Part shown: positions 11,929 to 35,143 of the stretch, piece after piece
Layout: every line of letters starts with the position of its first letter
Position numbering within the stretch: position 1 is the first letter of the stretch
From: Escherichia coli
Lineage (GTDB): Bacteria; Pseudomonadota; Gammaproteobacteria; Enterobacterales; Enterobacteriaceae
DNA: 64,000 bases
Direction: 5' to 3' (one strand)
Assembly: GCF_030384885.1 (NCBI RefSeq)
Contig: NZ_CP128613.1
Program-made: the position numbers and the translations under genes
Notes under the pieces: model-generated
What the model was told of the DNA's origin: nothing
The model's database searches: none
Seen by the model: only the letters and a program-made list of their open reading frames with translations

Positions 11929-12756
11929 TTGGAAAGCCTGTTAACCCTTCCTCTGGCTGGTGAGGCCAGAGTCAGGATTTTACAAATTACCGACACTCAC
12001 CTGTTTGCGCAAAAGCACGAAGCCCTGTTGGGGGTAAATACCTGGGAAAGCTACCAGGCGGTGCTGGAGGCGATTCGTCCACACCAGCACGAATTCGACC
12101 TGATTGTCGCGACCGGTGATTTAGCGCAGGATCAATCCTCTGCGGCCTATCAGCATTTCGCTGAAGGCATCGCAAGTTTTCGTGCGCCCTGCGTCTGGCT
12201 GCCGGGCAACCACGATTTTCAGCCTGCGATGTACAGCGCGCTACAGGATGCGGGGATCTCCCCGGCGAAGCGGGTGTTTATTGGTGAGCAATGGCAAATC
12301 CTGTTGCTGGATAGCCAGGTCTTTGGCGTGCCGCACGGTGAGCTGAGCGAGTTTCAGCTTGAGTGGCTGGAACGTAAACTGGCCGATGCGCCAGAACGCC
12401 ATACGTTGCTGCTGCTGCACCATCATCCGCTACCTGCTGGTTGTAGCTGGCTCGACCAACACAGTCTGCGTAACGCGGGCGAACTGGATAACGTGCTGGC
12501 GAAGTTTCCGAACGTTAAATACTTGCTATGTGGACATATCCATCAGGAGCTGGATCTCGACTGGAATGGTCGCCGCCTGCTGGCAACGCCATCGACCTGT
12601 GTACAGTTTAAGCCGCATTGTTCCAACTTTACGCTGGACACCATCGCGCCTGGTTGGCGTACGCTCGAGTTACATGCTGATGGTACCCTGACCACCGAGG
12701 TGCACCGCCTGGCGGACACACGTTTCCAACCTGATACCGCTTCAGAAGGCTACTGA
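11929..12756 (+). CDS. cpdA: cAMP phosphodiesterase CpdA
   Basis: 275 aa; calcineurin-like metallophosphoesterase motifs (GDL, GNHD). Confidence 0.93.
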
Positions 12757-19528: not shown

Positions 19529-20011
19529 ATGAAAGACCTGACACTGGATGTAAATATTATCGATTTCCCATCAATCCCTGTGGCGATGTTGCCACATCGC
19601 TGTAGCCCTGAATTGCTCAACTACAGCGTGGCGAAATTTATCATGTGGCGTAAAGAAACGGGGCTTTCTCCTGTTAACCAAAGCCAGACTTTTGGTGTCG
19701 CCTGGGACGACCCTGCCACCACCGTACCGGAAGCGTTTCGCTTTGATATCTGCGGCAGCGTTAACGAACCGATTCCCGATAATCGTTATGGCGTGAGTAA
19801 TGGTGAACTTACCGGTGGACGTTATGCCGTGGCCCGCCACGTTGGCGAGCTGGACGATATTTCACATACGGTATGGGGCATCATTCGCCACTGGCTGCCT
19901 GCAAGCGGCGAGAAAATGCGTAAAGCACCGATTCTGTTTCACTACACCAATCTTGCCGAAGGGGTAACAGAGCAGCGACTGGAAACGGATGTTTATGTGC
20001 CGTTGGCGTGA
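19529..20011 (+). CDS. ygiV: GyrI-like effector-binding domain regulator YgiV
   Basis: 160 aa; good RBS (gggagg); synteny. Confidence 0.88.
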   Translation: MKDLTLDVNIIDFPSIPVAMLPHRCSPELLNYSVAKFIMWRKETGLSPVNQSQTFGVAWDDPATTVPEAFRFDICGSVNEPIPDNRYGVSNGELTGGRYAVARHVGELDDISHTVWGIIRHWLPASGEKMRKAPILFHYTNLAEGVTEQRLETDVYVPLA

Positions 20012-20119
20012 TGAAGAATCTTTACCGGAGTGTGAGCCAAATCACTCGCGATAAGTTTGAGCGAACAATGCCACAGGCGTATTGTTGTTGGGCTTATAAT
20101 TTCTCCGGTAAGGAATACC

Positions 20120-21727
20120 ATGTATACGCGAAATTTATTATGGCTGGTCAGCCTGGTAAGTGCGGCTCCTCTCTACGCTGCTGACGTTCCCGCCAACACA
20201 CCGCTCGCCCCGCAACAAGTCTTTCGTTACAACAATCATAGCGACCCAGGTACGCTCGACCCGCAAAAGGTGGAGGAGAATACTGCCGCGCAGATTGTGC
20301 TGGATCTGTTTGAAGGTCTGGTATGGATGGACGGTGAAGGCCAGGTGCAGCCCGCTCAGGCTGAACGCTGGGAGATACTGGACGGCGGCAAGCGCTATAT
20401 TTTTCATCTGCGTAGCGGTTTGCAGTGGTCAGACGGTCAGCCTCTGACGGCAGAGGATTTTGTCCTCGGCTGGCAGCGCGCGGTTGACCCGAAAATGGCA
20501 AGCCCTTTTGCTGGCTATCTGGCACAGGCGCACATTAACAATGCCGCGGCTATTGTTGCGGGTAAAGCAGATGTTACATCGCTGGGTGTCAAAGCGATGG
20601 ATGATCGTACTATTGAAGTTACGCTTGAGCAGCCGGTTCCTTGGTTCACGACGATGCTCGCCTGGCCGACGCTGTTCCCGGTTCCCCATCATGTAATCGC
20701 GAAATATGGCGATAGCTGGAGTAAGCCTGCGCATATGGTTTACAACGGTGCCTTTGTGCTTGATAAATGGGTAGTTAACGAAAAGATTACTGCACGCAAA
20801 AATCCAAAGTACCGCGATGCGCAACATACGGTATTGCAACAGGTTGAGTATCTGGCGCTGGATAATTCGGTCACCGGCTATAACCGCTATCGCGCGGGAG
20901 AGGTCGATCTCACCTGGGTTCCGGCGCAGCAAATTCCTGCCATTGAAAAATCACTGCCTGGCGAGCTACGAATTATCCCGCGTCTGAACAGCGAATATTA
21001 CAACTTTAACCTTGAGAAACCGCCATTTAACGATGTGCGGGTGCGTCGGGCGCTATATCTTACGGTTGATCGACAGCTTATTGCGCAAAAGGTACTGGGG
21101 TTGAGAACGCCCGCAACCACGCTGACGCCGCCAGAGGTAAAAGGCTTTAGCGCGACGACGTTCGATGAACTGCAAAAGCCAATGAGTGAGCGTGTCGCGA
21201 TGGCAAAAGCCTTGCTGAAACAGGCGGGATACGACGCCTCTCATCCGCTACGCTTTGAGCTGTTCTACAACAAGTACGATCTGCATGAAAAAACCGCGAT
21301 AGCGTTGTCTTCCGAATGGAAAAAATGGCTGGGTGCACAGGTGACGCTGCGCACAATGGAGTGGAAAACCTATCTTGATGCCCGACGAACCGGTGATTTC
21401 ATGCTGTCTCGGCAGTCGTGGGATGCGACGTACAATGATGCTTCCAGCTTTCTGAACACGCTCAAAAGCGATAGTGAAGAAAACGTCGGTCACTGGAAAA
21501 ATGCGCAGTATGACGCCTTACTAAACCAGGCCACGCAGATCACTAATGCGACAAAGCGTAATGCGTTGTATCAGCAGGCAGAAGTGATCATCAACCAGCA
21601 GGCACCGCTGATTCCTATCTACTATCAGCCGTTAATCAAACTGCTTAAACCCTACGTTGGCGGTTTTCCGCTGCATAATCCGCAGGATTATGTCTACAGC
21701 AAAGAGTTGTATATCAAGGCACATTGA
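20120..21727 (+). CDS. ygiS: Periplasmic solute-binding protein YgiS (SBP family 5, oligopeptide-type)
   Basis: 535 aa from the internal Met (MYTRNLLWLVSLVSAAPLYA signal peptide). Only about 108 bp separate it from ygiV. Confidence 0.9.
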   Translation: MYTRNLLWLVSLVSAAPLYAADVPANTPLAPQQVFRYNNHSDPGTLDPQKVEENTAAQIVLDLFEGLVWMDGEGQVQPAQAERWEILDGGKRYIFHLRSGLQWSDGQPLTAEDFVLGWQRAVDPKMASPFAGYLAQAHINNAAAIVAGKADVTSLGVKAMDDRTIEVTLEQPVPWFTTMLAWPTLFPVPHHVIAKYGDSWSKPAHMVYNGAFVLDKWVVNEKITARKNPKYRDAQHTVLQQVEYLALDNSVTGYNRYRAGEVDLTWVPAQQIPAIEKSLPGELRIIPRLNSEYYNFNLEKPPFNDVRVRRALYLTVDRQLIAQKVLGLRTPATTLTPPEVKGFSATTFDELQKPMSERVAMAKALLKQAGYDASHPLRFELFYNKYDLHEKTAIALSSEWKKWLGAQVTLRTMEWKTYLDARRTGDFMLSRQSWDATYNDASSFLNTLKSDSEENVGHWKNAQYDALLNQATQITNATKRNALYQQAEVIINQQAPLIPIYYQPLIKLLKPYVGGFPLHNPQDYVYSKELYIKAH

Positions 21728-21864
21728 TGCCTTTATCGCCGTCGGAGCACGTCCGGCGGCGCTATTCACGCTGATCTCCTGTGACTCGACGCGGCAGATA
21801 ATGTAGTATCTCCGGCAATATTGCCCCTTTGAAGGCTGGCGAATAAGTTGAGGAATCAGAATTA

Positions 21865-24123
21865 ATGAGCGATATGGCAGAGCGCCTTGCGCTACATGAA
21901 TTTACGGAAAACGCCTACTTAAACTACTCCATGTACGTAATCATGGACCGTGCGTTGCCGTTTATTGGTGATGGTCTGAAACCTGTTCAGCGCCGCATTG
22001 TGTATGCGATGTCTGAACTGGGACTAAATGCCAGCGCCAAATTTAAAAAATCGGCCCGTACCGTCGGTGACGTACTGGGTAAATACCATCCGCACGGTGA
22101 TAGCGCCTGTTATGAAGCGATGGTCCTGATGGCACAGCCGTTCTCTTACCGTTATCCGCTGGTTGATGGTCAGGGGAACTGGGGCGCACCGGACGATCCG
22201 AAATCGTTCGCGGCGATGCGTTACACCGAATCCCGGTTGTCGAAATATTCCGAGCTGCTATTGAGCGAGCTGGGGCAGGGTACGGCTGACTGGGTGCCAA
22301 ACTTCGACGGTACTTTGCAGGAGCCGAAAATGCTACCTGCCCGTTTGCCGAACATTTTGCTTAACGGCACCACCGGTATTGCCGTCGGTATGGCGACCGA
22401 TATTCCACCGCATAACCTGCGTGAAGTGGCTCAGGCAGCAATCGCGTTAATCGACCAGCCGAAAACCACGCTCGACCAGCTGCTGGATATCGTGCAGGGG
22501 CCGGATTATCCGACCGAAGCGGAAATCATCACCTCGCGTGCCGAGATCCGTAAAATCTACGAAAATGGTCGCGGTTCTGTGCGTATGCGCGCGGTGTGGA
22601 AGAAAGAAGACGGTGCGGTGGTTATCAGCGCATTGCCGCATCAGGTTTCTGGTGCGCGCGTACTGGAGCAAATTGCTGCGCAAATGCGCAACAAAAAGCT
22701 GCCGATGGTTGACGATCTGCGCGATGAGTCTGACCACGAGAACCCGACCCGTCTGGTGATTGTGCCGCGTTCCAACCGCGTGGATATGGATCAGGTGATG
22801 AATCACCTTTTCGCCACCACCGATCTGGAAAAGAGCTATCGTATTAACCTTAATATGATCGGTCTGGATGGCCGTCCGGCGGTGAAAAACCTGCTGGAAA
22901 TCCTCTCCGAATGGCTGGTGTTCCGCCGCGATACCGTACGCCGCCGACTGAACTATCGTCTGGAGAAAGTCCTCAAGCGCCTGCATATCCTCGAAGGTTT
23001 GCTGGTGGCGTTTCTCAATATCGACGAAGTGATTGAGATCATTCGCAATGAAGATGAACCGAAACCGGCGCTGATGTCGCGGTTTGGCCTCACGGAAACT
23101 CAGGCGGAAGCGATCCTCGAACTGAAACTGCGTCATCTCGCCAAACTGGAAGAGATGAAGATTCGCGGTGAGCAGAGTGAGCTGGAAAAAGAGCGCGACC
23201 AGTTGCAAGGCATTCTGGCGTCCGAGCGTAAAATGAATAACCTGCTGAAGAAAGAACTGCAGGCAGACGCGCAAGCCTATGGTGACGATCGTCGTTCGCC
23301 GTTGCAGGAACGCGAAGAAGCGAAAGCGATGAGCGAGCACGACATGCTGCCGTCGGAACCCGTCACCATTGTGCTGTCGCAGATGGGCTGGGTACGCAGC
23401 GCTAAAGGCCATGACATCGACGCGCCGGGCCTGAATTATAAAGCGGGTGATAGCTTCAAAGCGGCGGTGAAAGGCAAGAGTAACCAACCGGTAGTGTTTG
23501 TTGATTCCACCGGTCGTAGCTATGCCATCGACCCGATTACGCTGCCGTCGGCGCGTGGTCAGGGCGAACCGCTCACCGGCAAATTAACGTTGCCGCCTGG
23601 GGCGACCGTTGACCATATGCTGATGGAAAGCGACGATCAGAAACTGCTGATGGCTTCCGATGCGGGTTACGGTTTCGTCTGTACCTTTAACGATCTGGTG
23701 GCGCGTAACCGTGCCGGTAAGGCTTTGATCACCTTACCGGAAAATGCCCATGTTATGCCGCCGGTGGTGATTGAAGATGCTTCCGATATGCTGCTGGCAA
23801 TCACTCAGGCAGGCCGTATGTTGATGTTCCCGGTAAGCGATCTGCCGCAGCTGTCGAAGGGCAAAGGCAACAAGATTATCAACATTCCGTCGGCAGAAGC
23901 CGCGCGTGGCGAGGATGGTCTGGCGCAACTGTACGTTCTGCCGCCGCAAAGCACGCTGACCATTCATGTTGGGAAACGCAAAATTAAACTGCGTCCGGAA
24001 GAGCTACAGAAAGTCACTGGCGAACGTGGACGCCGCGGTACGTTGATGCGCGGTTTGCAGCGTATCGATCGAGTCGAGATCGACTCTCCTCGCCGCGCCA
24101 GCAGCGGCGATAGCGAAGAGTAG
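21865..24123 (+). CDS. parC: DNA topoisomerase IV subunit A ParC
   Basis: 752 aa; GyrA/ParC N-terminal domain motifs. Confidence 0.96.
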
Positions 24124-24124
24124 T

Positions 24125-24200
24125 ATGCCGGGGAGGGTATTGCTTCCTCCCGCTTGCAAGGAACGCCGGATGAAACGTTAAGTCGTCATCCGGCAGCATA
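24125..24200 (+). terminator. Tandem hairpins downstream of parC (putative terminator or REP-like)
   Basis: gggagg...cctccc and gccggatga...tcatccggc inverted repeats. Coordinates by eye. Confidence 0.35.
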
Positions 24201-24356
24201 TTCAACCCCCGGAAACGATAAAAATTCCCTTGAAACCGTTGTTTATTCATGCGTTGCGATTAACAATACGCTTTTCCAGAGAGCGGCTTTTAACAATGCC
24301 CTAACCTGATTTCAGGTGACGTACAATGCCAGTCTCTCAGACCTTCAGAGGGTGTT

Positions 24357-25094
24357 ATGCTATATATCTTTCGTCTTATTATTACCGTGATTTACAGCAT
24401 CTTAGTCTGTGTATTCGGCTCCATTTACTGCCTTTTCAGCCCGCGTAACCCGAAACATGTAGCCACCTTTGGGCATATGTTTGGTCGTCTTGCGCCGCTG
24501 TTCGGCCTGAAAGTTGAGTGTCGCAAACCTGCAGATGCTGAAAGCTACGGCAATGCTATTTATATTGCTAACCACCAGAACAACTATGACATGGTGACAG
24601 CATCGAACATCGTGCAACCGCCGACGGTGACGGTAGGTAAAAAGAGTTTGCTGTGGATCCCCTTCTTTGGTCAGTTGTACTGGCTAACCGGCAACTTATT
24701 GATCGACAGAAATAACCGCACTAAAGCTCACGGCACCATTGCAGAAGTAGTGAATCACTTCAAAAAACGCCGTATTTCCATCTGGATGTTCCCGGAAGGT
24801 ACCCGCAGCCGTGGTCGCGGCCTGCTGCCGTTCAAGACCGGAGCATTTCACGCGGCAATTGCGGCAGGCGTCCCGATTATTCCCGTGTGCGTCTCTACAA
24901 CTTCGAATAAGATTAATCTTAATCGACTGCACAATGGCTTGGTTATTGTCGAAATGCTGCCGCCAATTGACGTGAGTCAGTATGGTAAAGACCAGGTTCG
25001 CGAGTTGGCTGCCCATTGTCGTTCGATAATGGAACAAAAAATCGCTGAGCTCGATAAAGAAGTCGCAGAACGCGAAGCCGCCGGAAGAGTTTAA
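24357..25094 (+). CDS. plsC: 1-acyl-sn-glycerol-3-phosphate acyltransferase PlsC
   Basis: 245 aa; acyltransferase motifs NHQNNYD and FPEGTR. Confidence 0.95.
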   Translation: MLYIFRLIITVIYSILVCVFGSIYCLFSPRNPKHVATFGHMFGRLAPLFGLKVECRKPADAESYGNAIYIANHQNNYDMVTASNIVQPPTVTVGKKSLLWIPFFGQLYWLTGNLLIDRNNRTKAHGTIAEVVNHFKKRRISIWMFPEGTRSRGRGLLPFKTGAFHAAIAAGVPIIPVCVSTTSNKINLNRLHNGLVIVEMLPPIDVSQYGKDQVRELAAHCRSIMEQKIAELDKEVAEREAAGRV

Positions 25095-25168
25095 GTCGGC
25101 AATCTGTATTTTTGCGGGGAACACTTTCCTGCACGGTATTACTTTAGCCAGTTTTACATGGAGCAAAT

Positions 25169-26581
25169 ATGTCACTCAGTCGGCGTCAGTTCATTCAGGC
25201 ATCGGGGATTGCACTTTGTGCAGGCGCTGTTCCCCTGAAGGCCAGCGCAGCCGGGCAACAGCAACCGCTACCCGTTCCGCCGCTGCTTGAATCTCGCCGT
25301 GGGCAACCGCTGTTTATGACTGTACAACGTGCGCACTGGTCATTTACGCCAGGAACGCGCGCATCGGTCTGGGGAATCAATGGTCGTTACCTGGGGCCGA
25401 CTATCCGCGTCTGGAAGGGCGATGATGTTAAGCTGATCTACAGTAACCGCCTGACAGAAAATGTCTCAATGACGGTGTCTGGTTTACAGGTGCCTGGCCC
25501 GCTGATGGGCGGTCCGGCACGGATGATGTCGCCAAACGCTGACTGGGCACCCGTATTACCCATTCGCCAGAACGCAGCGACATTGTGGTATCACGCTAAT
25601 ACCCCCAATCGCACGGCTCAGCAGGTCTATAATGGCCTTGCCGGAATGTGGCTGGTGGAAGATGAAGTCAGCAAGTCGCTGCCTATCCCCAACCATTATG
25701 GTGTGGATGATTTTCCGGTCATTATCCAGGATAAACGGCTGGATAACTTTGGTACGCCAGAATACAACGAACCGGGAAGCGGCGGCTTTGTTGGAGATAC
25801 GCTGCTGGTCAACGGTGTACAAAGCCCGTACGTTGAAGTCTCGCGTGGCTGGGTGCGCTTGCGACTGCTGAACGCGTCGAACTCTCGTCGCTATCAACTG
25901 CAGATGAGCGATGGTCGCCCGTTACATGTGATTTCTGGCGATCAGGGATTCTTGCCTGCTCCTGTATCGGTGAAGCAACTTTCGCTGGCACCGGGCGAGC
26001 GCCGCGAGATTCTGGTGGATATGAGCAACGGTGATGAAGTGTCGATCACCTGTGGCGAAGCGGCGAGCATTGTTGATCGTATTCGTGGCTTCTTTGAGCC
26101 ATCCAGCATTCTGGTTTCTACGCTGGTGCTCACGTTGCGCCCTACCGGGCTACTGCCGCTGGTTACTGACAGCCTGCCGATGCGCCTGCTGCCAACTGAA
26201 ATTATGGCCGGTTCGCCGATTCGCAGTCGCGATATCAGTCTGGGTGATGACCCGGGTATCAATGGGCAGCTGTGGGACGTCAACCGTATTGATGTCACCG
26301 CGCAGCAAGGAACGTGGGAACGCTGGACGGTACGCGCGGACGAGCCGCAAGCGTTCCATATTGAAGGCGTGATGTTCCAGATCCGTAACGTGAATGGCGC
26401 GATGCCGTTCCCGGAAGACAGAGGCTGGAAAGATACCGTTTGGGTTGACGGACAAGTGGAGCTGCTTGTTTATTTCGGTCAGCCTTCCTGGGCGCACTTT
26501 CCGTTCTACTTCAACAGTCAGACGCTGGAAATGGCGGACCGTGGCTCGATTGGGCAACTGTTGGTCAATCCGGTACCGTAA
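25169..26581 (+). CDS. ftsP: Cell division protein FtsP (SufI), multicopper-oxidase fold, Tat-exported
   Basis: 470 aa; twin-arginine signal SRRQFIQASGIALCAGA. Confidence 0.95.
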   Translation: MSLSRRQFIQASGIALCAGAVPLKASAAGQQQPLPVPPLLESRRGQPLFMTVQRAHWSFTPGTRASVWGINGRYLGPTIRVWKGDDVKLIYSNRLTENVSMTVSGLQVPGPLMGGPARMMSPNADWAPVLPIRQNAATLWYHANTPNRTAQQVYNGLAGMWLVEDEVSKSLPIPNHYGVDDFPVIIQDKRLDNFGTPEYNEPGSGGFVGDTLLVNGVQSPYVEVSRGWVRLRLLNASNSRRYQLQMSDGRPLHVISGDQGFLPAPVSVKQLSLAPGERREILVDMSNGDEVSITCGEAASIVDRIRGFFEPSSILVSTLVLTLRPTGLLPLVTDSLPMRLLPTEIMAGSPIRSRDISLGDDPGINGQLWDVNRIDVTAQQGTWERWTVRADEPQAFHIEGVMFQIRNVNGAMPFPEDRGWKDTVWVDGQVELLVYFGQPSWAHFPFYFNSQTLEMADRGSIGQLLVNPVP

Positions 26582-26631
26582 TGGACCAATTCAATGCCCC
26601 ACAGAGTGGTGGGGCGATACAAGGATGAATC

Positions 26632-28056
26632 ATGGATGGCATGGGATGGATGATTATTTTGGTACTTCCCTTTCTTTGGATGGGCTATGGACTGGCGTTG
26701 TTAATCATAACGGGGTGCGCTTTTGAATCTAAGAGGATTCGTCGCGTTCTGCTATGGGGTGTTGCGCCCCAGTTTATTATTCTTTGTATTACGACCTTAT
26801 TGCTTTATTGGATTAACTCTCGGTTAATTTATGTTTTTGTCTTTTTTCAGCCGGTTTTATGCATCACTACGGCAATTTTTTTGTTTGCTGGTAAAAAAAC
26901 ACAATATTCCAGATTGCTGTTTACTCTGTCTCATGTGATTTTTCTCGCTGGAGTTTTATATCAGGGGCATAGGGAAAATCTGCAACACATAATTAATAGC
27001 GACTGGAAGGAATATAAAATAACGCGTTTATTTGAGCAAGTGCAGGACAATGGAGCGCATGCGCTGAATAACGATGTAACTTGTTCAGAATTAATGCAAC
27101 TACTCACCCTGGCAGCGGAACGTGATGACGTCAAAGAAGAGACGTTACGTACTCTTATTGCAAAGAGAGTATCGCCATTTCTGACAATGTCAGATAACTG
27201 TACGGGTGAGGATTCAGTAGAGATTTATTCTGTAGATACTACACCTTTTATGGCGGCTATTCAGAATCATAATATACATTCTGTTCGTTTTTTTAGTCAA
27301 TTGCTTATGGGAAACTCACCAAAAGCAAAAAATAATCGTGACATTGTGCGCCGGGCAAACCCTTTGATCGAAGTGTATAAATATAGTCATGGTTCAAAAA
27401 AACAACGTAACTCAGGGTTAGAAATAAGTAAGCAATTAATCGCTATTATGCCAGAACTATTAACAGATGCCGTCTGGCGTGCCGTGCTCAATGTATATGA
27501 TGCCGATGCAGCACGATGGTTCTGGCGTAAGCAACCACCAGAAAATCGGTTGTATCGCTTAAAGGCTATGGCATTAATACCACAAACAGATGCGCTGTTG
27601 GCAGAGATTCGACATACTCCAGAGGTACTGAATATCTCGTCTGAGGGGGACCTGAATGAAGAGGAGTTTCTCCATTTCTTAATTTATGGAGGAGATACCG
27701 CTGTAATACATGCACTGGTTGAAAAAGGAATAGTTAACTGGCAGCACCTTATGAACATTGAGGGGTTTGATAAGGACCCCTTAATATGGTCTATTTCAAA
27801 ACTGGGAGAAAACGACAATGACCGGGAGGTTTTGGCATTAATTATTCATGATATTAATGCGCAAAACGCACTGCCGGAGGAACGCATTGCCAAATATTTA
27901 ACGTGGACGGGAGCAATGGGCGAGATTTTTTTAAAGGCGGGCGTACATTGTGATAAGTTATATGCGGCAATTGAGTCCGACAAAAAGCGAAATAATGGCA
28001 TGTATAGTCAAAACGCCAGGGAAGAAGTGGATCGCGTATGTACGCCCACAAAATAG
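26632..28056 (+). CDS. Accessory membrane-anchored ankyrin-repeat protein (about 4 N-terminal TM helices plus a roughly 370-aa soluble domain); function unknown
   Basis: 474-aa ORF; RBS aagga 6 nt upstream of the ATG. Hydrophobic segments at roughly residues 6-30, 39-62, 65-86 and 95-110. C-terminal ankyrin-like repeats (EFLHFLIYGGDTAVIHALVEKGIVNWQ; DPLIWSISKLGEN...VLALIIHDINAQNA). Markedly AT-rich by eye. Not part of the K-12 ftsP-ygiQ junction as I recall it. Confidence 0.75.
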   Translation: MDGMGWMIILVLPFLWMGYGLALLIITGCAFESKRIRRVLLWGVAPQFIILCITTLLLYWINSRLIYVFVFFQPVLCITTAIFLFAGKKTQYSRLLFTLSHVIFLAGVLYQGHRENLQHIINSDWKEYKITRLFEQVQDNGAHALNNDVTCSELMQLLTLAAERDDVKEETLRTLIAKRVSPFLTMSDNCTGEDSVEIYSVDTTPFMAAIQNHNIHSVRFFSQLLMGNSPKAKNNRDIVRRANPLIEVYKYSHGSKKQRNSGLEISKQLIAIMPELLTDAVWRAVLNVYDADAARWFWRKQPPENRLYRLKAMALIPQTDALLAEIRHTPEVLNISSEGDLNEEEFLHFLIYGGDTAVIHALVEKGIVNWQHLMNIEGFDKDPLIWSISKLGENDNDREVLALIIHDINAQNALPEERIAKYLTWTGAMGEIFLKAGVHCDKLYAAIESDKKRNNGMYSQNAREEVDRVCTPTK

Positions 28057-28185
28057 GAGCAGTTTGGGGCGGTTAAGGGATAAAAAATAAATGCCTTTCG
28101 CTATCTGTCAGGGCGAATCTCACCATTTGCTATACCTTCCATTGGCGATGAACAGTATTCTACCCGCACTTTTTTTACGATTGCG

Positions 28186-28992
28186 TTGAAGCATTACAAC
28201 GCCCGCGCCATCCGCGCGTTTAGCCGCTTTCTGCAAGGAAATTCCTCAAAAGCGCAGGAATATCGCGCGATTGTTCATCAAAAAAATCCACTGCAGCAGA
28301 TGTACCGGGGAATAAGTTTGCCAATTCGTTTTAGTGAAGAAGAGATCGCCCGCCACATTGTTGCCGCTCGCGAGATAAGCCTCACCTTGCTGCCCCTGAT
28401 GCCAGAATTATTAAACGAAGAGGCGTATGCAAATGTCATTGATGCTAATGACAGCGCAACGCTGAAGGCTTTTTGGCAGATCCAGCTGCCGCCCACGCCG
28501 GTTTTACGCCTGGAAGCGATGTCGGTAATTCCCATGACAGCGGCACTGGTTCAACAGGTGAGGGAGTCACCAAAGCGGCTTGAACTGGAAGATAAAAGTG
28601 GCAGGACAGTACTAACTTACATCGTGCGCTTTGGGAATATTGCCGCAGTACAGGCACTGATTGACGCTAATCTGATCGACTGGCAACGGCTCCGCCAATC
28701 GACAGGAAGGTCAACACCATTATTACTGGCGATCTGGCGACAAAAATACGACGATGATTATGTAATCTTCCCATTGATTTTAAAGGACATGCTGGCAAAA
28801 AATGCGCCACCCTCAGCAGAGGAAATAATGAACTGCATTAAGGATGGTATGACCGCAGATGATTTTTTATCTGCCGGAATGAGCAACACGCAATTCTGTT
28901 CTGCGATTGAACAAAGCCTCCAGGCGAAAACGTCAGTATTACCGGCGAATCGATTACGCCATCTGCAATCCTCGCGGTGTGCAAAGCTGTAA
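28186..28992 (+). CDS. 5'-truncated paralog of the preceding ankyrin-repeat protein (soluble domain only); may be a gene remnant or pseudogene
   Basis: 268-aa ORF starting at a TTG with no obvious RBS. Aligns along its whole length to residues about 205-460 of the upstream protein (RAFSRFLQGNSSKAQ vs RFFSQLLMGNSPKAK; VLRLEAMSVIPMTAALVQQVRESPK vs RLYRLKAMALIPQTDALLAEIRHTPE; GRTVLTYIVRFGNIAAVQALIDANLIDWQ vs EEFLHFLIYGGDTAVIHALVEKGIVNWQ). In-frame homology continues upstream of the TTG back to a stop at about 28081. Confidence 0.55.
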   Translation: MKHYNARAIRAFSRFLQGNSSKAQEYRAIVHQKNPLQQMYRGISLPIRFSEEEIARHIVAAREISLTLLPLMPELLNEEAYANVIDANDSATLKAFWQIQLPPTPVLRLEAMSVIPMTAALVQQVRESPKRLELEDKSGRTVLTYIVRFGNIAAVQALIDANLIDWQRLRQSTGRSTPLLLAIWRQKYDDDYVIFPLILKDMLAKNAPPSAEEIMNCIKDGMTADDFLSAGMSNTQFCSAIEQSLQAKTSVLPANRLRHLQSSRCAKL

Positions 28993-29107
28993 CCAACCGG
29001 AAGTTAAGTCATCCGCTGAAAACATCGCATTAACTTTTCGATTTCTCTTTCGTTCCGGCTTATAATCCCCGGCCTTTGATTATTTTTTTATCATTTCTGG
29101 AAGCAAA

Positions 29108-31327
29108 ATGAGCTCTATCTCCCTGATCCAACCGGATCGCGACCTGTTCTCCTGGCCGCAGTACTGGGCCGCCTGTTTTGGACCGGCACCGTTTTTGCCG
29201 ATGTCTCGTGAAGAGATGGATCAACTTGGCTGGGATAGCTGCGACATCATTTTGGTTACTGGCGACGCGTATGTCGATCACCCAAGCTTCGGGATGGCGA
29301 TTTGCGGTCGTATGCTTGAAGCGCAGGGCTTTCGCGTCGGGATCATCGCCCAGCCAGACTGGAGCAGCAAAGACGATTTCATGCGTCTGGGTAAACCGAA
29401 TCTGTTTTTCGGTGTTACTGCTGGCAACATGGACTCGATGATCAACCGCTATACCGCCGATCGCCGTTTACGTCATGACGATGCCTACACACCGGATAAC
29501 GTCGCGGGTAAGCGCCCGGATCGCGCCACCCTGGTTTATACCCAACGCTGTAAAGAGGCGTGGAAAGATGTGCCGGTGATCCTCGGCGGTATTGAGGCTA
29601 GTTTGCGTCGTACCGCGCATTATGATTACTGGTCTGATACCGTGCGCCGTTCCGTGCTGGTGGATTCCAAAGCCGACATGCTGATGTTCGGTAACGGTGA
29701 GCGTCCGCTGGTGGAAGTGGCGCATCGTCTGGCGATGGGTGAGCCGATTAGTGAAATCCGCGATGTGCGTAATACCGCGATTATCGTAAAAGAGGCGTTG
29801 CCAGGCTGGAGCGGTGTGGATTCCACCCGTCTTGATACTCCTGGGAAAATCGACCCGATCCCGCATCCGTATGGTGAAGATTTGCCGTGCGCGGATAACA
29901 AACCGGTGGCCCCGAAAAAGCAGGAAGCGAAAGCCGTAACCGTGCAGCCACCGCGCCCGAAACCGTGGGAAAAAACTTACGTATTGCTGCCTTCTTTCGA
30001 GAAAGTGAAGGGCGATAAAGTGCTGTACGCTCATGCTTCGCGTATTCTGCACCATGAAACCAACCCAGGCTGCGCGCGTGCGCTGATGCAAAAACATGGC
30101 GACCGCTATGTATGGATCAACCCGCCTGCCATCCCGCTTTCTACCGAAGAGATGGACAGCGTCTTTGCGCTGCCGTACAAGCGCGTGCCGCATCCGGCTT
30201 ACGGTAATGCCCGAATTCCGGCTTACGAAATGATCCGTTTCTCGGTCAACATTATGCGCGGCTGCTTTGGCGGCTGCTCTTTCTGCTCTATTACCGAGCA
30301 TGAAGGTCGCATTATTCAGAGCCGTTCGGAAGATTCGATCATCAACGAGATTGAAGCGATCCGCGACACCGTGCCAGGCTTTACGGGCGTGATTTCCGAT
30401 CTCGGTGGGCCAACTGCCAACATGTATATGTTGCGCTGCAAATCGCCGCGCGCCGAGCAGACTTGCCGCCGTTTATCGTGCGTTTACCCGGATATTTGTC
30501 CTCATATGGACACTAACCACGAACCGACGATCAACCTCTATCGCCGCGCGCGTGATCTGAAAGGCATTAAAAAGATCCTCATCGCTTCCGGCGTGCGTTA
30601 TGACATCGCCGTGGAAGATCCGCGCTATATCAAAGAGCTGGCGACCCATCACGTTGGCGGTTATCTGAAGATTGCCCCGGAACATACCGAAGAAGGGCCG
30701 TTATCGAAGATGATGAAGCCGGGCATGGGCAGCTATGACCGCTTTAAAGAGCTGTTCGATACTTACTCGAAACAGGCAGGTAAAGAGCAATATCTGATCC
30801 CGTATTTCATCTCCGCACACCCCGGTACGCGTGATGAAGATATGGTGAATCTGGCGCTGTGGCTGAAAAAGCATCGCTTCCGTCTCGACCAGGTACAGAA
30901 CTTCTACCCGTCGCCGTTGGCTAACTCCACCACCATGTATTACACCGGGAAAAACCCGCTGGCGAAGATTGGTTACAAGAGTGAAGACGTCTTCGTACCG
31001 AAGGGCGACAAACAGCGTCGTTTGCATAAAGCGTTGTTGCGTTACCACGATCCGGCAAACTGGCCGTTAATCCGTCAGGCGCTGGAAGCGATGGGTAAAA
31101 AGCATCTGATTGGCAGCCGTCGTGATTGCTTAGTGCCTGCGCCAACCATTGAAGAGATGCGCGAAGCCCGCCGTCAGAACCGCAATACCCGTCCGGCGTT
31201 GACTAAACATACGCCGATGGCGACCCAGCGTCAGACACCTGCTACGGCAAAAAAAGCGTCGTCTACGCCATCTCGCCCGGTGAATGCTGGCGCGAAGAAA
31301 CGCCCTAAAGCGGTGGCAGGTCGTTAA
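29108..31327 (+). CDS. ygiQ: Radical SAM protein YgiQ (UPF0313 family)
   Basis: 739 aa; Cys motif CFGGCSFCS; basic, Pro/Ala-rich C-terminal tail. Confidence 0.93.
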
Positions 31328-31329
31328 GT

Positions 31330-31365
31330 GAAATGTGCCCGGCAGCAATGATGCTGCCGGGAAAT
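31330..31365. terminator. Hairpin between ygiQ and the convergent Lpp-like gene
   Basis: cccggcagc aatgat gctgccggg inverted repeat followed by an AT tract. Confidence 0.45.
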
Positions 31366-31596
31366 TTATAACCTTGGTTTATAAGGACTGTTACGAACGT
31401 CTAAGCGGTAATGCGCTCTTGCTGTTTCGTCTTTAACTTGCTGAATTTCCGGACGCAGGGCGTCAATATCCTGTTGCAGTTGATTAATTTTGTTATTCAA
31501 TGCCTGAATATCATGTTCCAGGTGTTCAATTTTGGCATTGCTGGTACAGCCAGCAAGACACAGCGCCAGCGGAATGGATAAGATAAGTTTGTTCAT
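31366..31596 (-). CDS. Lpp-family small outer-membrane lipoprotein paralog (about 76 aa)
   Basis: Internal Met of ORF 31366..31647 gives MNKLILSIPLALCLAGC (lipobox) followed by a coiled-coil region resembling Lpp and YqhH (AKIEHLEHDIQALNNKINQLQQDIDALRPEIQQVKDE). Confidence 0.7.
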   Translation of the reverse strand: MNKLILSIPLALCLAGCTSNAKIEHLEHDIQALNNKINQLQQDIDALRPEIQQVKDETARAHYRLDVRNSPYKPRL

Positions 31597-31613
31597 TATG
31601 AATTCCAGAACCG

Positions 31614-31871
31614 TCATTCCGCATACATACGTAAGCAGCGCAGGCAATCGAAATAGTCCTGGGCGTCAAGGCGCGTATTGGCTCTGTTAGCTTCGGATTT
31701 TGCCGCATAGATTTGCGGGCGTAATGCTTTCATATCCTGCTCAAGTCGGGCAATTTTGGCATTTAACGTCTGTACGTTGCTCGCCAGCTGATTGACCTTT
31801 TGCTCATTGACGCAGCCGCTGAGCAAGCAGGTTGCCAGAACAACAGCCCCCACGGTGAAAATCGTTTTCAT
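31614..31871 (-). CDS. yqhH: Lpp-family lipoprotein YqhH
   Basis: 85 aa, [20 protein letters not shown] lipobox; coiled-coil Lpp-like sequence. Confidence 0.88.
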
Positions 31872-31921
31872 ATAGTATTCCCTTTTATTTATTGTTCCGA
31901 CTAATTGTTATTTTATTCAGC

Positions 31922-32848
31922 TCATTGCTTTAATCTGGCGGCGGTTTTCACCTCAATCTGTTTAAGTAGGCTGCCGCTGTTTGGACGGATAAAATCAGCG
32001 ATTTCCCACTTACCTTCGCGCCGCTGTAAAATCAATTCTTGCTCTTCGTTGTTGCCATTGGTCAGCGTAAAACGAACATGAATGCGGGCGGAATCGGCGG
32101 TTTTCTCCAGGACTCGAATTTCATCAACGCGTGAAAATAGCGACTCTTCGCCAAAACAGATCGGATTGTCGTAAATAAATTGCCGTTCTATTTGCATATC
32201 CTCATCGGGATTGTTGGCAGTCTTGAAGGTGGTTTTATAGAAGGCATTGACCGCCTGGCGGTAAGAGTCGGAAACCACCCACGTCCACGGCCAGCTATAA
32301 TCAGCAATATGTTCAAAGAGTTCGGCAACAAAGGCTTCCGGCTGTTCTTTTTGCAACGAAGCTATAGCGGCCAGCGTTTTTTCATTCTCGCTATTAACTG
32401 CTTGTAAGACGCTGCCATGATTGCTGACAATATCGTCAATGACCCAACGACCATTTTCCGCCACCATTTTCAGTGTCTGCGTGGTCTTTTCTTTATCGTC
32501 TTTAAAGATACGAAAGCGCACAACGGCATCGGCATGATCGGCGTCAGGTTGGGTTATCGCTACGCTTTCTAACACCAGATCGCCAAAATCCTGACAATCA
32601 CAAACCGGATCATAATCCAGCCAGCCAATATTGCCCGGCAGCGTAAGATTGTCGTTCAGGGTAAGCGCCTGTTGAATACGCGCAGAAGTTATCGCTCGCT
32701 CTCCGGTTTCACCAAAATAAGGCGTACTGGCATCTGATTTATAGTTCTGATAAATCTGCCGGACTGTTTGTTCTACGGTCTGTGAGGGAGGCTGTGCGTG
32801 TACGGTAAAACTTGCCAGGGCTGCTAAAAACAGAAGTATTATTTTCAT
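31922..32848 (-). CDS. yqhG: Periplasmic DUF3828 protein YqhG
   Basis: 308 aa with signal peptide; synteny. Confidence 0.88.
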   Translation of the reverse strand: MKIILLFLAALASFTVHAQPPSQTVEQTVRQIYQNYKSDASTPYFGETGERAITSARIQQALTLNDNLTLPGNIGWLDYDPVCDCQDFGDLVLESVAITQPDADHADAVVRFRIFKDDKEKTTQTLKMVAENGRWVIDDIVSNHGSVLQAVNSENEKTLAAIASLQKEQPEAFVAELFEHIADYSWPWTWVVSDSYRQAVNAFYKTTFKTANNPDEDMQIERQFIYDNPICFGEESLFSRVDEIRVLEKTADSARIHVRFTLTNGNNEEQELILQRREGKWEIADFIRPNSGSLLKQIEVKTAARLKQ

Positions 32849-33047
32849 CTGTTTTTCACCTCTCCGTTGCGTTCATCCCGGGTGTAGATGAATTGTTCCT
32901 TTAAGAGCTTCCGGCTCTGCATGATGATGCCCTTATATTTGGCGTTCCTGAACAAGGAAGAGTAACAATGGGCGTGACGCGAGGGGAATAAATGATTTCT
33001 GAAAAGTCCGGTAGCGGAACATTACCGCCACCGGAAGAATTTGCGCG

Positions 33048-33875
33048 TTAGCCGCCGAACTGGTCGGGATCGGGGCCGAGGCGTTTGCCCTGGTCGAGTT
33101 TGGCAATTTCACCTAGCTCGTCTTTGTCGAGACGGAAATCCCAGACATCAAAGTTTTCGGCAATACGTGAAGGTGTGACCGATTTCGGGATCACCACCAG
33201 GCCGTTATCCAGATGCCAGCGGATAACAATCTGCGCCGGGGTTTTGCCGTATTTATCTGCCAGATCGCGAATGACTTTCTGATCGAAAACGCCTTTCCCA
33301 CCTTGCGCTAATGGGCTCCAGGATTCGGTCTGGATTTTGTGTGTCGCGTTCCAGGCGTGAAGCTGGCGTTGCTGCATCAGCGGGTGGAGTTCAATCTGGT
33401 TTATCACCGGCGTCACGCCAGTTTCATCAATCAGGCGTTGCAGGTGGTGGATCTGGAAGTTGCACACGCCGATGCTTTTGATTAAGCCCTCTTTTTGCAA
33501 TTCGATCATGCCCTTCCATGCTTCGACATAATGGTCGATAGCAGGAACGGGCCAGTGCATTAAGTAAAGGTCGACATAATCAAGCTGGAGTTTTTTCAGG
33601 CTGTCGAGCAGGGCTTCGCGGGGGCGCTTGTGGTCGTCGTTCCAAAGTTTAGTGGTGATGAACAGTTCTTCTCTGTTAACTGAGGCATTTTTCAGGGCTT
33701 TGCCGACACCTTCTTCGTTCTTATAGGCCGCGGCGGTATCAATCGAGCGATAACCCACGTCTAACGCTTTTTGAATGGCAGTGATTACTTCCTCATTACT
33801 TGCTTGCCAGACGCCCAGTCCCAACTGGGGCATGACATTGCCATCCTGTAGCTTAATAACGGTTGGATTAGCCAT
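33048..33875 (-). CDS. dkgA: Aldo-keto reductase DkgA (2,5-diketo-D-gluconate reductase A)
   Basis: 275 aa; AKR motifs; downstream of yqhD. Confidence 0.93.
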   Translation of the reverse strand: MANPTVIKLQDGNVMPQLGLGVWQASNEEVITAIQKALDVGYRSIDTAAAYKNEEGVGKALKNASVNREELFITTKLWNDDHKRPREALLDSLKKLQLDYVDLYLMHWPVPAIDHYVEAWKGMIELQKEGLIKSIGVCNFQIHHLQRLIDETGVTPVINQIELHPLMQQRQLHAWNATHKIQTESWSPLAQGGKGVFDQKVIRDLADKYGKTPAQIVIRWHLDNGLVVIPKSVTPSRIAENFDVWDFRLDKDELGEIAKLDQGKRLGPDPDQFGG

Positions 33876-33979
33876 ACGTTCCTCCTTTATATGAACTCAC
33901 CGGAGCAGGCTCCGGTGAGGTGTTGTGAACTTAAGTCTGGACGAAATGCCCGAAAACGAAAGTTTGAGGCGTAAAAAGC

Positions 33980-35143
33980 TTAGCGGGCGGCTTCGTATAT
34001 GCGGCGGCTGACATCCAGCGTAATGTCATGATTTTCGCCCAGTTGGGTCATACCGTGCTCTTCCAGTTTTTTCAACAAAGCCGGGATGGAGCTGCCGTCC
34101 AGACCGTAGTCGGAGAGGTGGGTCGGCACGCCTAATTGCTCAAAGAAATTGCGGGTTGCGGCAATCGCGGCGTCAATACGCTCATCGTCAGAACCTTCTG
34201 TGATGTTCCAGACGCGTTCAGCATATTGCAGCAGTTTAGCGCGTTTAGTGTCGCGTTTCTCATTCCACAGTGCAGGCAGGACGATAGCCAGCGTTTGCGC
34301 GTGATCCAGACCGTGCATCGCAGTCAGTTCGTGGCCCAGCATATGCGTTGCCCAATCCTGGGGTACACCTGCGCCAATTAAACCGTTCAGCGCCTGAGTC
34401 GCCGCCCACATAACGTTGGCGCGTACATCGTAGTTTTCTGGCTCTTTCAGGGCTTTCGGACCATCTTCGATCAGCGTCAGCAAAATGCCTTCTGCGAAAC
34501 GGTCCTGAATTTTGGCATCAACCGGTTTGGTAACATACTGTTCCACGGTGTGCACAAAGGCATCCACTACACCGTTAGCCACCTGACGCGGCGGCAGAGT
34601 GTAGGTATAAACCGGATCGAGCACGGCAAATACCGGCTGAACATGGGCAGAATGGAACGCCTGCTTGTCGCCTGTAGTTTTACGGGAGATGACCGCACCT
34701 GCGTTGGATTCTGAACCGGTCGCTGGCAGCGTCAGCACACAGCCCATCGGGATAGCGCTTTTAATCTCTTTACCGCCCGTTTGCAGAATGTGCCACGGAT
34801 CGATATTTTCTGGATAGTTAGCCGCCGCAGCGATAAATTTGGTGCCGTCCAGTACAGAACCGCCGCCAACCGCCAGCAGGAAGGTTACTTTCTGTTCGCG
34901 AACCAGTTTCACGGCGTTCATCAGCGTTTCATAAGCCGGGTTTGGCTCAATACCGCCAAATTCCAGCACGTCCATGCCTTTCAGGGCATCCAGAACTTGA
35001 TCGAGAACGCCGGTTTTTTTCACGCTGCCGCCGCCGTAGGTAATCAATACGCGAGCATCGTGAGGAATTTGTTCGCGTAAACCAGCGATTGCGCCTTTAC
35101 CAAAAAGAATGCGGGTTGGGGTGTGCAGATTAAAGTTGTTCAT
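33980..35143 (-). CDS. yqhD: NADPH-dependent aldehyde reductase YqhD (iron-containing alcohol dehydrogenase family)
   Basis: 387 aa from the internal Met [21 protein letters not shown] motif. Confidence 0.94.

Follow-up and report, generated by a model that had tools for sequence, protein, structure and literature searches.

The Escherichia coli DNA analyzed here (hereafter the window, 64,000 nucleotides, matching the E. coli 2013C-4282 chromosome with 100% identity) raises the question of how a segment of about 2.4 kb came to lie between the core genes ftsP and ygiQ, an interval that is nearly empty in K-12. The segment, called the cassette below, carries one intact gene, open reading frame 1 (ORF1), followed by the remains of a second, paralogous one (ORF2). 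An initial annotation had described it as a two-gene insertion acquired between co-directional core genes. The size (2,451 bp) and the common orientation (plus strand throughout) hold, whereas the second gene is a deletion remnant, and the notion of an insertion or acquisition is not borne out: the same gene family fills the same interval in five other taxa, and the synonymous divergence (dS) of the E. albertii gene equals that of ftsP, so that the carriers most likely retain the ancestral state and K-12 is derived. Here it is proposed, with a probability of roughly 0.78, that the segment is the relic of an ancestral gene pair that was lost differentially and shuffled by homologous recombination, with no mobile element taking part.

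The two core flanks are ftsP (sufI, 25169-26581), placed by the ORF list, the RefSeq annotation of the identical genome and the K-12 junction alignment, and ygiQ, encoding a radical SAM protein (29108-31327; ORF list and RefSeq). These genes and all the oriented features between them are on the plus strand. The alignment to K-12 MG1655 extends exactly to the TAA of ftsP (26581|26582) and resumes at 29033-29036 (TTTCGATTTCTC...), with the right junction at 29033-29035 and unambiguous homology from 29036. Between these points the window has ~2,451 bp (26582-~29032), as against a hairpin-containing segment of 35-38 bp in K-12 (TCTTCATACTCGCCCGAGGAGGGCGAGTATGGAATACC); the extra DNA is a replacement of the K-12 filler and not an insertion with target duplication. 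The 2,451 bp consist of a 50 bp spacer, the 1,425 bp of ORF1, 35 bp, the 901 bp of the ORF2 remnant and a final ~40 bp. ORF1 (26632-28056; ORF list and RefSeq) is intact and encodes 474 aa, and its GC content is 0.38-0.43 compared to ~0.55 in the flanks. The scar of a 519-bp deletion, with a 3-bp AAA microhomology, lies at 28089-28091, as located by BLAST of the window against a locus with the full-length cassette (L004), and the open frame of the ORF2 remnant follows at 28092-28992 (ORF list, RefSeq and the same BLAST comparison). The last 72-75 bp of the interval considered in the initial annotation (29036-29107) are the conserved ygiQ upstream region (TTTCGATTTCTCTTTCGTTCCGGCT-TATAAT..., from the junction comparison) and are outside the extra segment.

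The scans for mobility features were empty throughout, as the initial annotation had anticipated. No tRNA or tmRNA gene was found within 20000-35000 of the window, no direct or inverted repeats pair the two junctions (such repeats as occur are short and dispersed), and the left-junction sequence is not duplicated at the right junction. Scans of both proteins with Pfam, NCBIfam, PADLOC and PHROGs gave no match to a mobility protein (integrase, recombinase or transposase), the window contains no insertion sequence (IS) or integrase remnants, and a tblastn search of 72,556 plasmid and 50,697 phage records returned no homologs. As the two family genes and their short spacers take up every base, no DNA is left over in which the remnant of a mobile element could hide. 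Strain EC2641 serves as a positive control, having an IS1 in the last codons (3' end) of ORF1 (L005 ~4463-5240) with a clear target duplication (TGTACTCC). The cassette is present as a single copy in each of the 13 E. coli carriers, and the seven copies inspected all sit between ftsP and ygiQ.

These 13 carriers come from a survey of 5,426 complete E. coli genomes, and the two genes are thus not shared by K-12 and most of the species. The proposal that other strains fill this variable spot with different cargo was correct: 1,202-1,213 of the 5,426 genomes (22%), including ST131 and ATCC 25922, have between ftsP and ygiQ a 7.7-kb island that encodes a TRAP transporter, three dehydrogenases and a GntR regulator (the TRAP island), and ~77% have neither this island nor the cassette and are K-12-like. 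The window lineage itself is well sampled in draft assemblies, as the exact ORF1 protein is found on 539 public contigs. The alternative contents of the interval are therefore four: empty (K-12), the cassette, the TRAP island, or both (E. albertii and the partial contig L008). The interval had already been catalogued, in a comparison of the extraintestinal pathogenic E. coli (ExPEC) strain BEN2908 (PMC12928451), as the genomic region GR21 "ygiQ..ftsP". GR21 is the same chromosomal interval, with 7.8 kb of TRAP-transporter/dehydrogenase DNA as its content, whereas the window has no TRAP island and holds a much rarer occupant, the cassette, which the excerpts consulted of that comparison do not mention. 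Many hotspots without mobile elements and with recombining flanks have been described (Oliveira et al. 2017, PMC5635113). Like those, the ftsP-ygiQ interval has alternative contents, no mobile-element genes and mosaic, phylogenetically incongruent flanks; unlike those, its variation mostly seems to reflect the loss of different parts of an old composite locus and not the repeated arrival of new cargo, and with only three or four haplotype classes seen it is a small spot rather than a high-turnover hotspot.

Outside E. coli, the genomic contexts were taken from exact-protein look-ups, and a scan of species-representative contigs with narrow peptide patterns gave one locus. Between ftsP and ygiQ, E. 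whittamii has ORF1 and ORF2, Salmonella enterica subsp. salamae and an enterobacterium (L012) each have one family gene (X), and Pseudocitrobacter corydidari has M48 peptidase and LemA genes, two tandem paralogs of the family and a 123-aa ORF. In E. albertii the family and the TRAP island stand side by side, in the order ftsP, a paralog remnant reduced to its transmembrane portion, a gene of the ORF2 type (469 aa, 70% identical), the complete TRAP island and ygiQ. The partial contig L008, which does not reach the ygiQ side, has ftsP, ORF1, a frameshifted ORF2 and a TRAP permease gene, and Escherichia sp. MOD1-EC7003 has the first ORF1 codons, an intact ORF2 and the TRAP island's right end. The initial suggestion that the cassette is old and not a recent mobile-element insertion agrees with the absence of mobility features and with this repeated filling of the same interval in several species.

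The divergence of the genes also points to a long residence. Between E. albertii and E. coli, the dS of ORF2 (0.84-0.86) matches that of ftsP (0.73-0.81; 0.52-0.64 for plsC), which argues that ORF2 has been at this locus for a long time. Within E. coli sensu stricto (GF4-3 against PT62/AH04), the values are 0.094-0.097 for ORF1 and 0.055 for ORF2, with 0.053-0.057 for ftsP and 0.061-0.068 for plsC. In these sensu stricto carriers the flanks are 98-99.5% identical to K-12 up to both junctions, and their identity profiles against K-12 show no visible imported tract. At least three allele groups of the cassette, differing by 2-4%, were recognized. Elsewhere the cassette tree and the flank tree are not fully congruent: the divergence of the cassette lies below that of the flanks in two comparisons and far above it in EC7003, where ORF2 has a dS of 0.73 to E. 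coli and the flanks ~0.2. Comparing the window with MFDS1022581, the cassette is 99.7% identical, whereas the adjacent last third of ftsP is 96.2% and a part of ygiQ (ygiQ_b) 95.8% identical (differences of 3.8% and 4.2%). A near-identical cassette with diverged flanks indicates that homologous recombination has reshuffled cassette and flanks, and exchange through the flanking core DNA, which the initial annotation had put forward, appears from these alignments to be the means by which the cassette has spread.

The short sequences at the two ends of the interval give further evidence on the direction of change. The left end of the cassette (26582-26615, plus strand, from the junction comparison) is a 34-bp segment, TGGACCAATTCAATGCCCCACAGAGTGGTGGGGC, with a hairpin stem at 26596-26602/26609-26615. 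This end (TGGACC...GGTGGGGC hairpin) is identical over 34 nt (100%) to that of L002, and the same is found in E. coli with only the TRAP island; K-12 carries an unrelated hairpin directly 3' of ftsP. Its presence in both cassette carriers and TRAP-only strains can be explained by deletion from a composite locus. At the other end, the ygiQ-proximal segment TTTCGATTTCTC...CCGGCT is common to the window, K-12, S. enterica subsp. salamae and L012, and absent in TRAP-type strains, which suggests that the K-12 allele descends from a haplotype with the cassette alone.

The simplest reading of these data is that the present E. coli haplotypes derive from a composite ancestral locus by different deletions, and we infer a polarity of loss and not of gain. 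A tandem pair of paralogous inner-membrane genes would have been at ftsP-ygiQ before the genus Escherichia diversified, and probably already in an older ancestor within the Enterobacteriaceae. In the Escherichia ancestor, the pair would have adjoined a sugar-acid island with the TRAP transporter, forming a composite locus with ftsP, the family genes, the TRAP island and ygiQ in this order. From it, K-12-like E. coli would have lost everything, B2-like strains would have kept the TRAP island and the 34-bp left-end hairpin and lost the rest, and the window lineage, E. whittamii and a few E. coli would have kept the gene pair alone. The presence and absence alleles may then have persisted as an old polymorphism, moving between backgrounds by homologous recombination in the flanking core genes, and in the window lineage a 519-bp deletion at the microhomology would have decapitated gene 2.

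Several observations weigh against this history. The dS of the cassette is 2-3x below that of the flanks in the comparison of the window with E. coli sensu stricto (0.05-0.10 against 0.15-0.25) and with E. whittamii (0.17-0.20 against 0.36-0.54; 0.17-0.30 against 0.35-0.63 when E. whittamii is compared to the window or E. coli), values that agree more readily with a later exchange than with strictly vertical inheritance. The filler of 35-38 bp in K-12 (L003 20983-21020) has only chance matches of 9-13 nt to the cassette, the TRAP island and all fetched loci; being unlike either occupant, the "empty" allele is not the simple visible product of a deletion. Family members are also found at non-syntenic positions, in Salmonella (P0016, among IS elements), Atlantibacter and Enterobacter cancerogenus, and the family must on occasion have moved. 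The syntenic Salmonella protein and ORF1 share only 37% identity, a greater divergence than the ratio of nonsynonymous to synonymous divergence (dN/dS) predicts for simple orthology. Finally, carriers are rare in each species for which a count or cluster size is at hand, so that differential loss would require either that it happened many times in parallel or that an allele lacking the genes spread.

Part of this evidence would be explained if the E. coli ancestor lacked the cassette and the few carriers, the window lineage among them, received it from a different Escherichia species through a double homologous recombination, in ftsP/plsC and in ygiQ. This reading, essentially that of the initial annotation, is compatible with an ancestral presence in the genus and differs from differential loss only over E. 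coli itself. It accounts for the low dS of the cassette relative to the flanks between the window and both E. whittamii and E. coli sensu stricto, for the ORF2 allele of EC7003 being far more divergent than its flanks, and for the mosaic flanks, and its mechanism is documented for hotspots free of mobile elements (PMC5635113). Such an introgression is nevertheless improbable, given that sensu stricto carriers have K-12-like flanks up to both junctions, that the alleles of the cassette have, within E. coli sensu stricto, diverged to the same degree as their flanks, that there are at least three allele groups 2-4% apart, and that TRAP-only E. coli retain the 34-bp left end of the cassette, which argues that the cassette was once there.

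Explanations based on mobility fare considerably worse. The low GC over ORF1, the rarity of the cassette in E. coli and the occurrence of the family beside IS elements at another locus in some Salmonella would suit a recent mobile element whose integrase, transposase or repeats have since been erased, and yet the empty scans for tRNA, repeats and mobility domains, the absence of spare DNA between the genes and of plasmid or phage homologs, and the filling of the same position in at least five species with a divergence that tracks the flanks make it very improbable and already close to refuted. Least probable of all is some site-specific mechanism recognizing the ftsP terminator or the ygiQ promoter region and causing repeated independent insertions across genera; the occupation of one interval in several genera, and by two cargoes (the cassette and the TRAP island), would be expected from it, but there is no recombinase gene and there are no conserved ends, the junction sequences differ between genera, the divergence is clock-like relative to the flanks, and the family members at other loci have unrelated neighborhoods. 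Differential loss of an ancestral pair thus remains the preferred explanation. The phenomenon is of a known kind and does not overturn current views of genome plasticity, and the gene family is uncharacterized. The locus is a worked example of how a rare "accessory insertion" relative to K-12 can be an ancestral gene set lost by the reference strain, and the interval would record a nested history of the family, then the family with the TRAP island, then differential deletions.

The full-length form of the cassette, found in 10 of the 13 carriers (nine, plus EC2641 with its IS1), has 3,045 bp without the IS1 and encodes paralogs of 474 and 469 aa, ORF1 and the full-length gene 2 paralog being 26% identical over the whole length. 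Relative to this version, the window and two other genomes have the 519-bp deletion, which was mapped against L004 (window ...28091 to 4510 and 28089... to 5027). The deletion took from gene 2 the ATG with its ribosome-binding site and ~170 codons, corresponding to the entire membrane domain with all four helices, and the remnant is homologous to codons ~171-469 of the 469-aa paralog. In the mechanical ORF list it starts at a TTG at 28186, and RefSeq starts it at an ATG (28318-28992) as an "ankyrin repeat domain-containing protein". In comparison to intact orthologs, ORF2 of the window has lost both its start codon and an essential domain, as expected for a pseudogene, and the remnant, having no membrane anchor, is probably non-functional.

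Lesions are common in the family, including the deletion in the window, the frameshift in L008, the loss of ORF1 in EC7003, the 352-aa forms of E. albertii and the split genes of Salmonella. In EC2641, besides the IS1 in ORF1, ORF2 is split into two overlapping ORFs, and these lesions represent an ongoing decay of the cassette. Gene 2 of LD91-1, which is short in the RefSeq annotation and was considered as a further damaged copy, is intact at 1,410 nt with no stops. The dN/dS of the cassette genes is 0.2-0.35, compared to <0.03 for ftsP, plsC and ygiQ, indicating that a constraint persists on the intact family copies in the form of weak purifying selection.

ORF1 starts 50 bp 3' of the ftsP stop, with a Shine-Dalgarno-like AAGGA 6 nt upstream of the start. 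The left-end hairpin between them is probably an ftsP-distal terminator or attenuator of the ancestral arrangement; its stem is not followed by a T-run and was not called as a terminator in the promoter and terminator scan, in which the number of sites was no higher than in shuffled sequence. Because ORF1 begins so close to the ftsP stop, behind a hairpin with no T-run, it is probably transcribed by read-through from ftsP.

The family is small: at 50% identity it makes up ~20 clusters in a set of 1.84 billion representatives. Many of its members are fragments, and those with names all come from Enterobacteriaceae. ORF1 was modeled with AlphaFold2 on an 18-sequence alignment (predicted local distance difference test, pLDDT, 81; predicted template modeling score, pTM, 0.71), and the model has transmembrane helices at residues 4-30, 34-60, 66-89 and 91-114, followed by an all-alpha ankyrin-like solenoid in which the stacked helix-loop-helix fold of ankyrin proteins is predicted. 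At the sequence level, there is no significant match to a Pfam ankyrin profile, the best, to Ank_2 (PF12796), having E=0.0015 with full-length ORF2, while ORF1 gave E>1; compared to Ank_2 and related Pfam families, the repeats are degenerate and their matches are below Pfam significance. NCBIfam, PADLOC and PHROGs gave no useful annotation of the family, a search of AFDB50 retrieved only uncharacterized enterobacterial proteins, Foldseek against the PDB gave only generic alpha-solenoids (E>0.003), and the family profile had one marginal ankyrin match among PDB sequences (E 0.03). A likeness of ORF1 residues 28-157 (window ~26713-27102) to pentameric ligand-gated channels (the four-helix transmembrane domain of GABA-A beta and GLIC) was discarded, since the match (E ~0.1-0.6) is non-significant and probably compositional.

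Across the 18 members, loops 1 and 3 of the membrane domain are basic, whereas loop 2 and the N-terminus are acidic or neutral. Near the C-terminus a Cys pair (Cys441/Cys470 in ORF1) is conserved, which in five members is the sole Cys pair of the soluble domain. From the positive-inside rule and this Cys pair, the predicted position of the ankyrin-like domain is periplasmic. Helix 2 has an invariant Pro46-Gln47 and helix 4 a nearly invariant His, and with this conservation the membrane domain may be more than an anchor. A variation of this architecture is found in P. corydidari, where P0072 (L019 5178-6941) has 587 aa and an N-terminal extension that repeats the four-helix module, including its FPQ and CHL motifs; eight helices are predicted and the predicted orientation of the soluble domain is unchanged.

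The closest functional precedent found for this small unannotated family, with its four-helix membrane domain and ankyrin-like domain and its position next to the cell-division gene ftsP in several genera, is Tli of Enterobacter cloacae. This periplasmic lipoprotein has six ankyrin repeats and neutralizes a T6SS (type VI secretion system) lipase (PMC11470151). Like Tli, the family has an ankyrin-type solenoid tethered to the inner membrane and exposed to the periplasm (for the family, by prediction only), and its genes tend to occur as tandem paralogs and evolve quickly. Unlike Tli, the family loci have no adjacent tle effector or T6SS gene, neither being found in the contexts examined (the window locus, E. 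whittamii, salamae, E. albertii, Pseudocitrobacter and the non-syntenic loci), and the anchor is the four-helix membrane domain with its invariant Pro-Gln and nearly invariant His and not a lipobox. There is also no detectable sequence similarity between the two, and Tli is not one of the top-ranked structural matches, so that the likeness is confined to architecture.

On this analogy, a membrane-tethered periplasmic binder that neutralizes or excludes an incoming envelope-acting agent, in the manner of immunity or exclusion proteins, is a tentative suggestion of low probability for the role of the family. Otherwise the genes would be a dispensable and decaying envelope accessory, probably read through from ftsP. 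A still more doubtful extension is that the family comprises undescribed, fast-evolving orphan protective binders specific to Enterobacteriaceae, directed against envelope-acting toxins (for example T6SS lipases, colicins or contact-dependent inhibition toxins) or phage entry, and that the presence and absence at ftsP-ygiQ is a long-lived cross-species polymorphism under balancing selection. An obligatory functional link to ftsP, which the synteny and the likely read-through might suggest, is disfavored by the family members at unrelated loci. Among the non-syntenic members, that of E. cancerogenus (L017 7001-9460) lies tail-to-tail with a Barstar-domain gene and two small ORFs; the Barstar domain is an immunity protein of RNase toxins, and this is the only context hinting at a toxin/immunity neighborhood.

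The sequence just upstream of the ygiQ TATAAT has two old alleles of ~25 bp (25-27 bp in the TRAP type). The allele TTTCGATTTCTCTTTCGTTCCGGCT is found in the window (29036-29060), K-12, S. enterica subsp. salamae and L012, and the allele CACTTCATTTCCGCGCGTGATACAGCG in TRAP-type E. coli (L002 ~11976-12000), EC7003 and Pseudocitrobacter (L019 ~8890-8925). As Pseudocitrobacter carries the latter and has no TRAP island here, this allele is not simply the end of the island. Further downstream, ygiQ itself has within E. coli an unusually high dS of 0.13-0.25, compared to ~0.05 for ftsP, with virtually no amino-acid change, and its identity along the gene is blocky, resembling a recombination mosaic beside two variable spots. 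The second of these spots, between ygiQ and yqhH (31344-31614), has in the window an extra gene for an Lpp-like "leucine zipper" lipoprotein (31366-31596, minus strand) that is not in K-12, and L002, L004, L022 and L023 have one to three different hypothetical genes instead.

On the other side of the cassette, ftsP is preceded by parC (21865-24123) and plsC (24357-25094), both on the plus strand (ORF list). At 20013-20019, the window lacks the mqsR-mqsA toxin-antitoxin pair, which K-12 has between ygiV and ygiS (L003 13695-14388); the site has ~930 bp in K-12 and ~5 bp in the window, another presence/absence difference with no obvious mobility genes.

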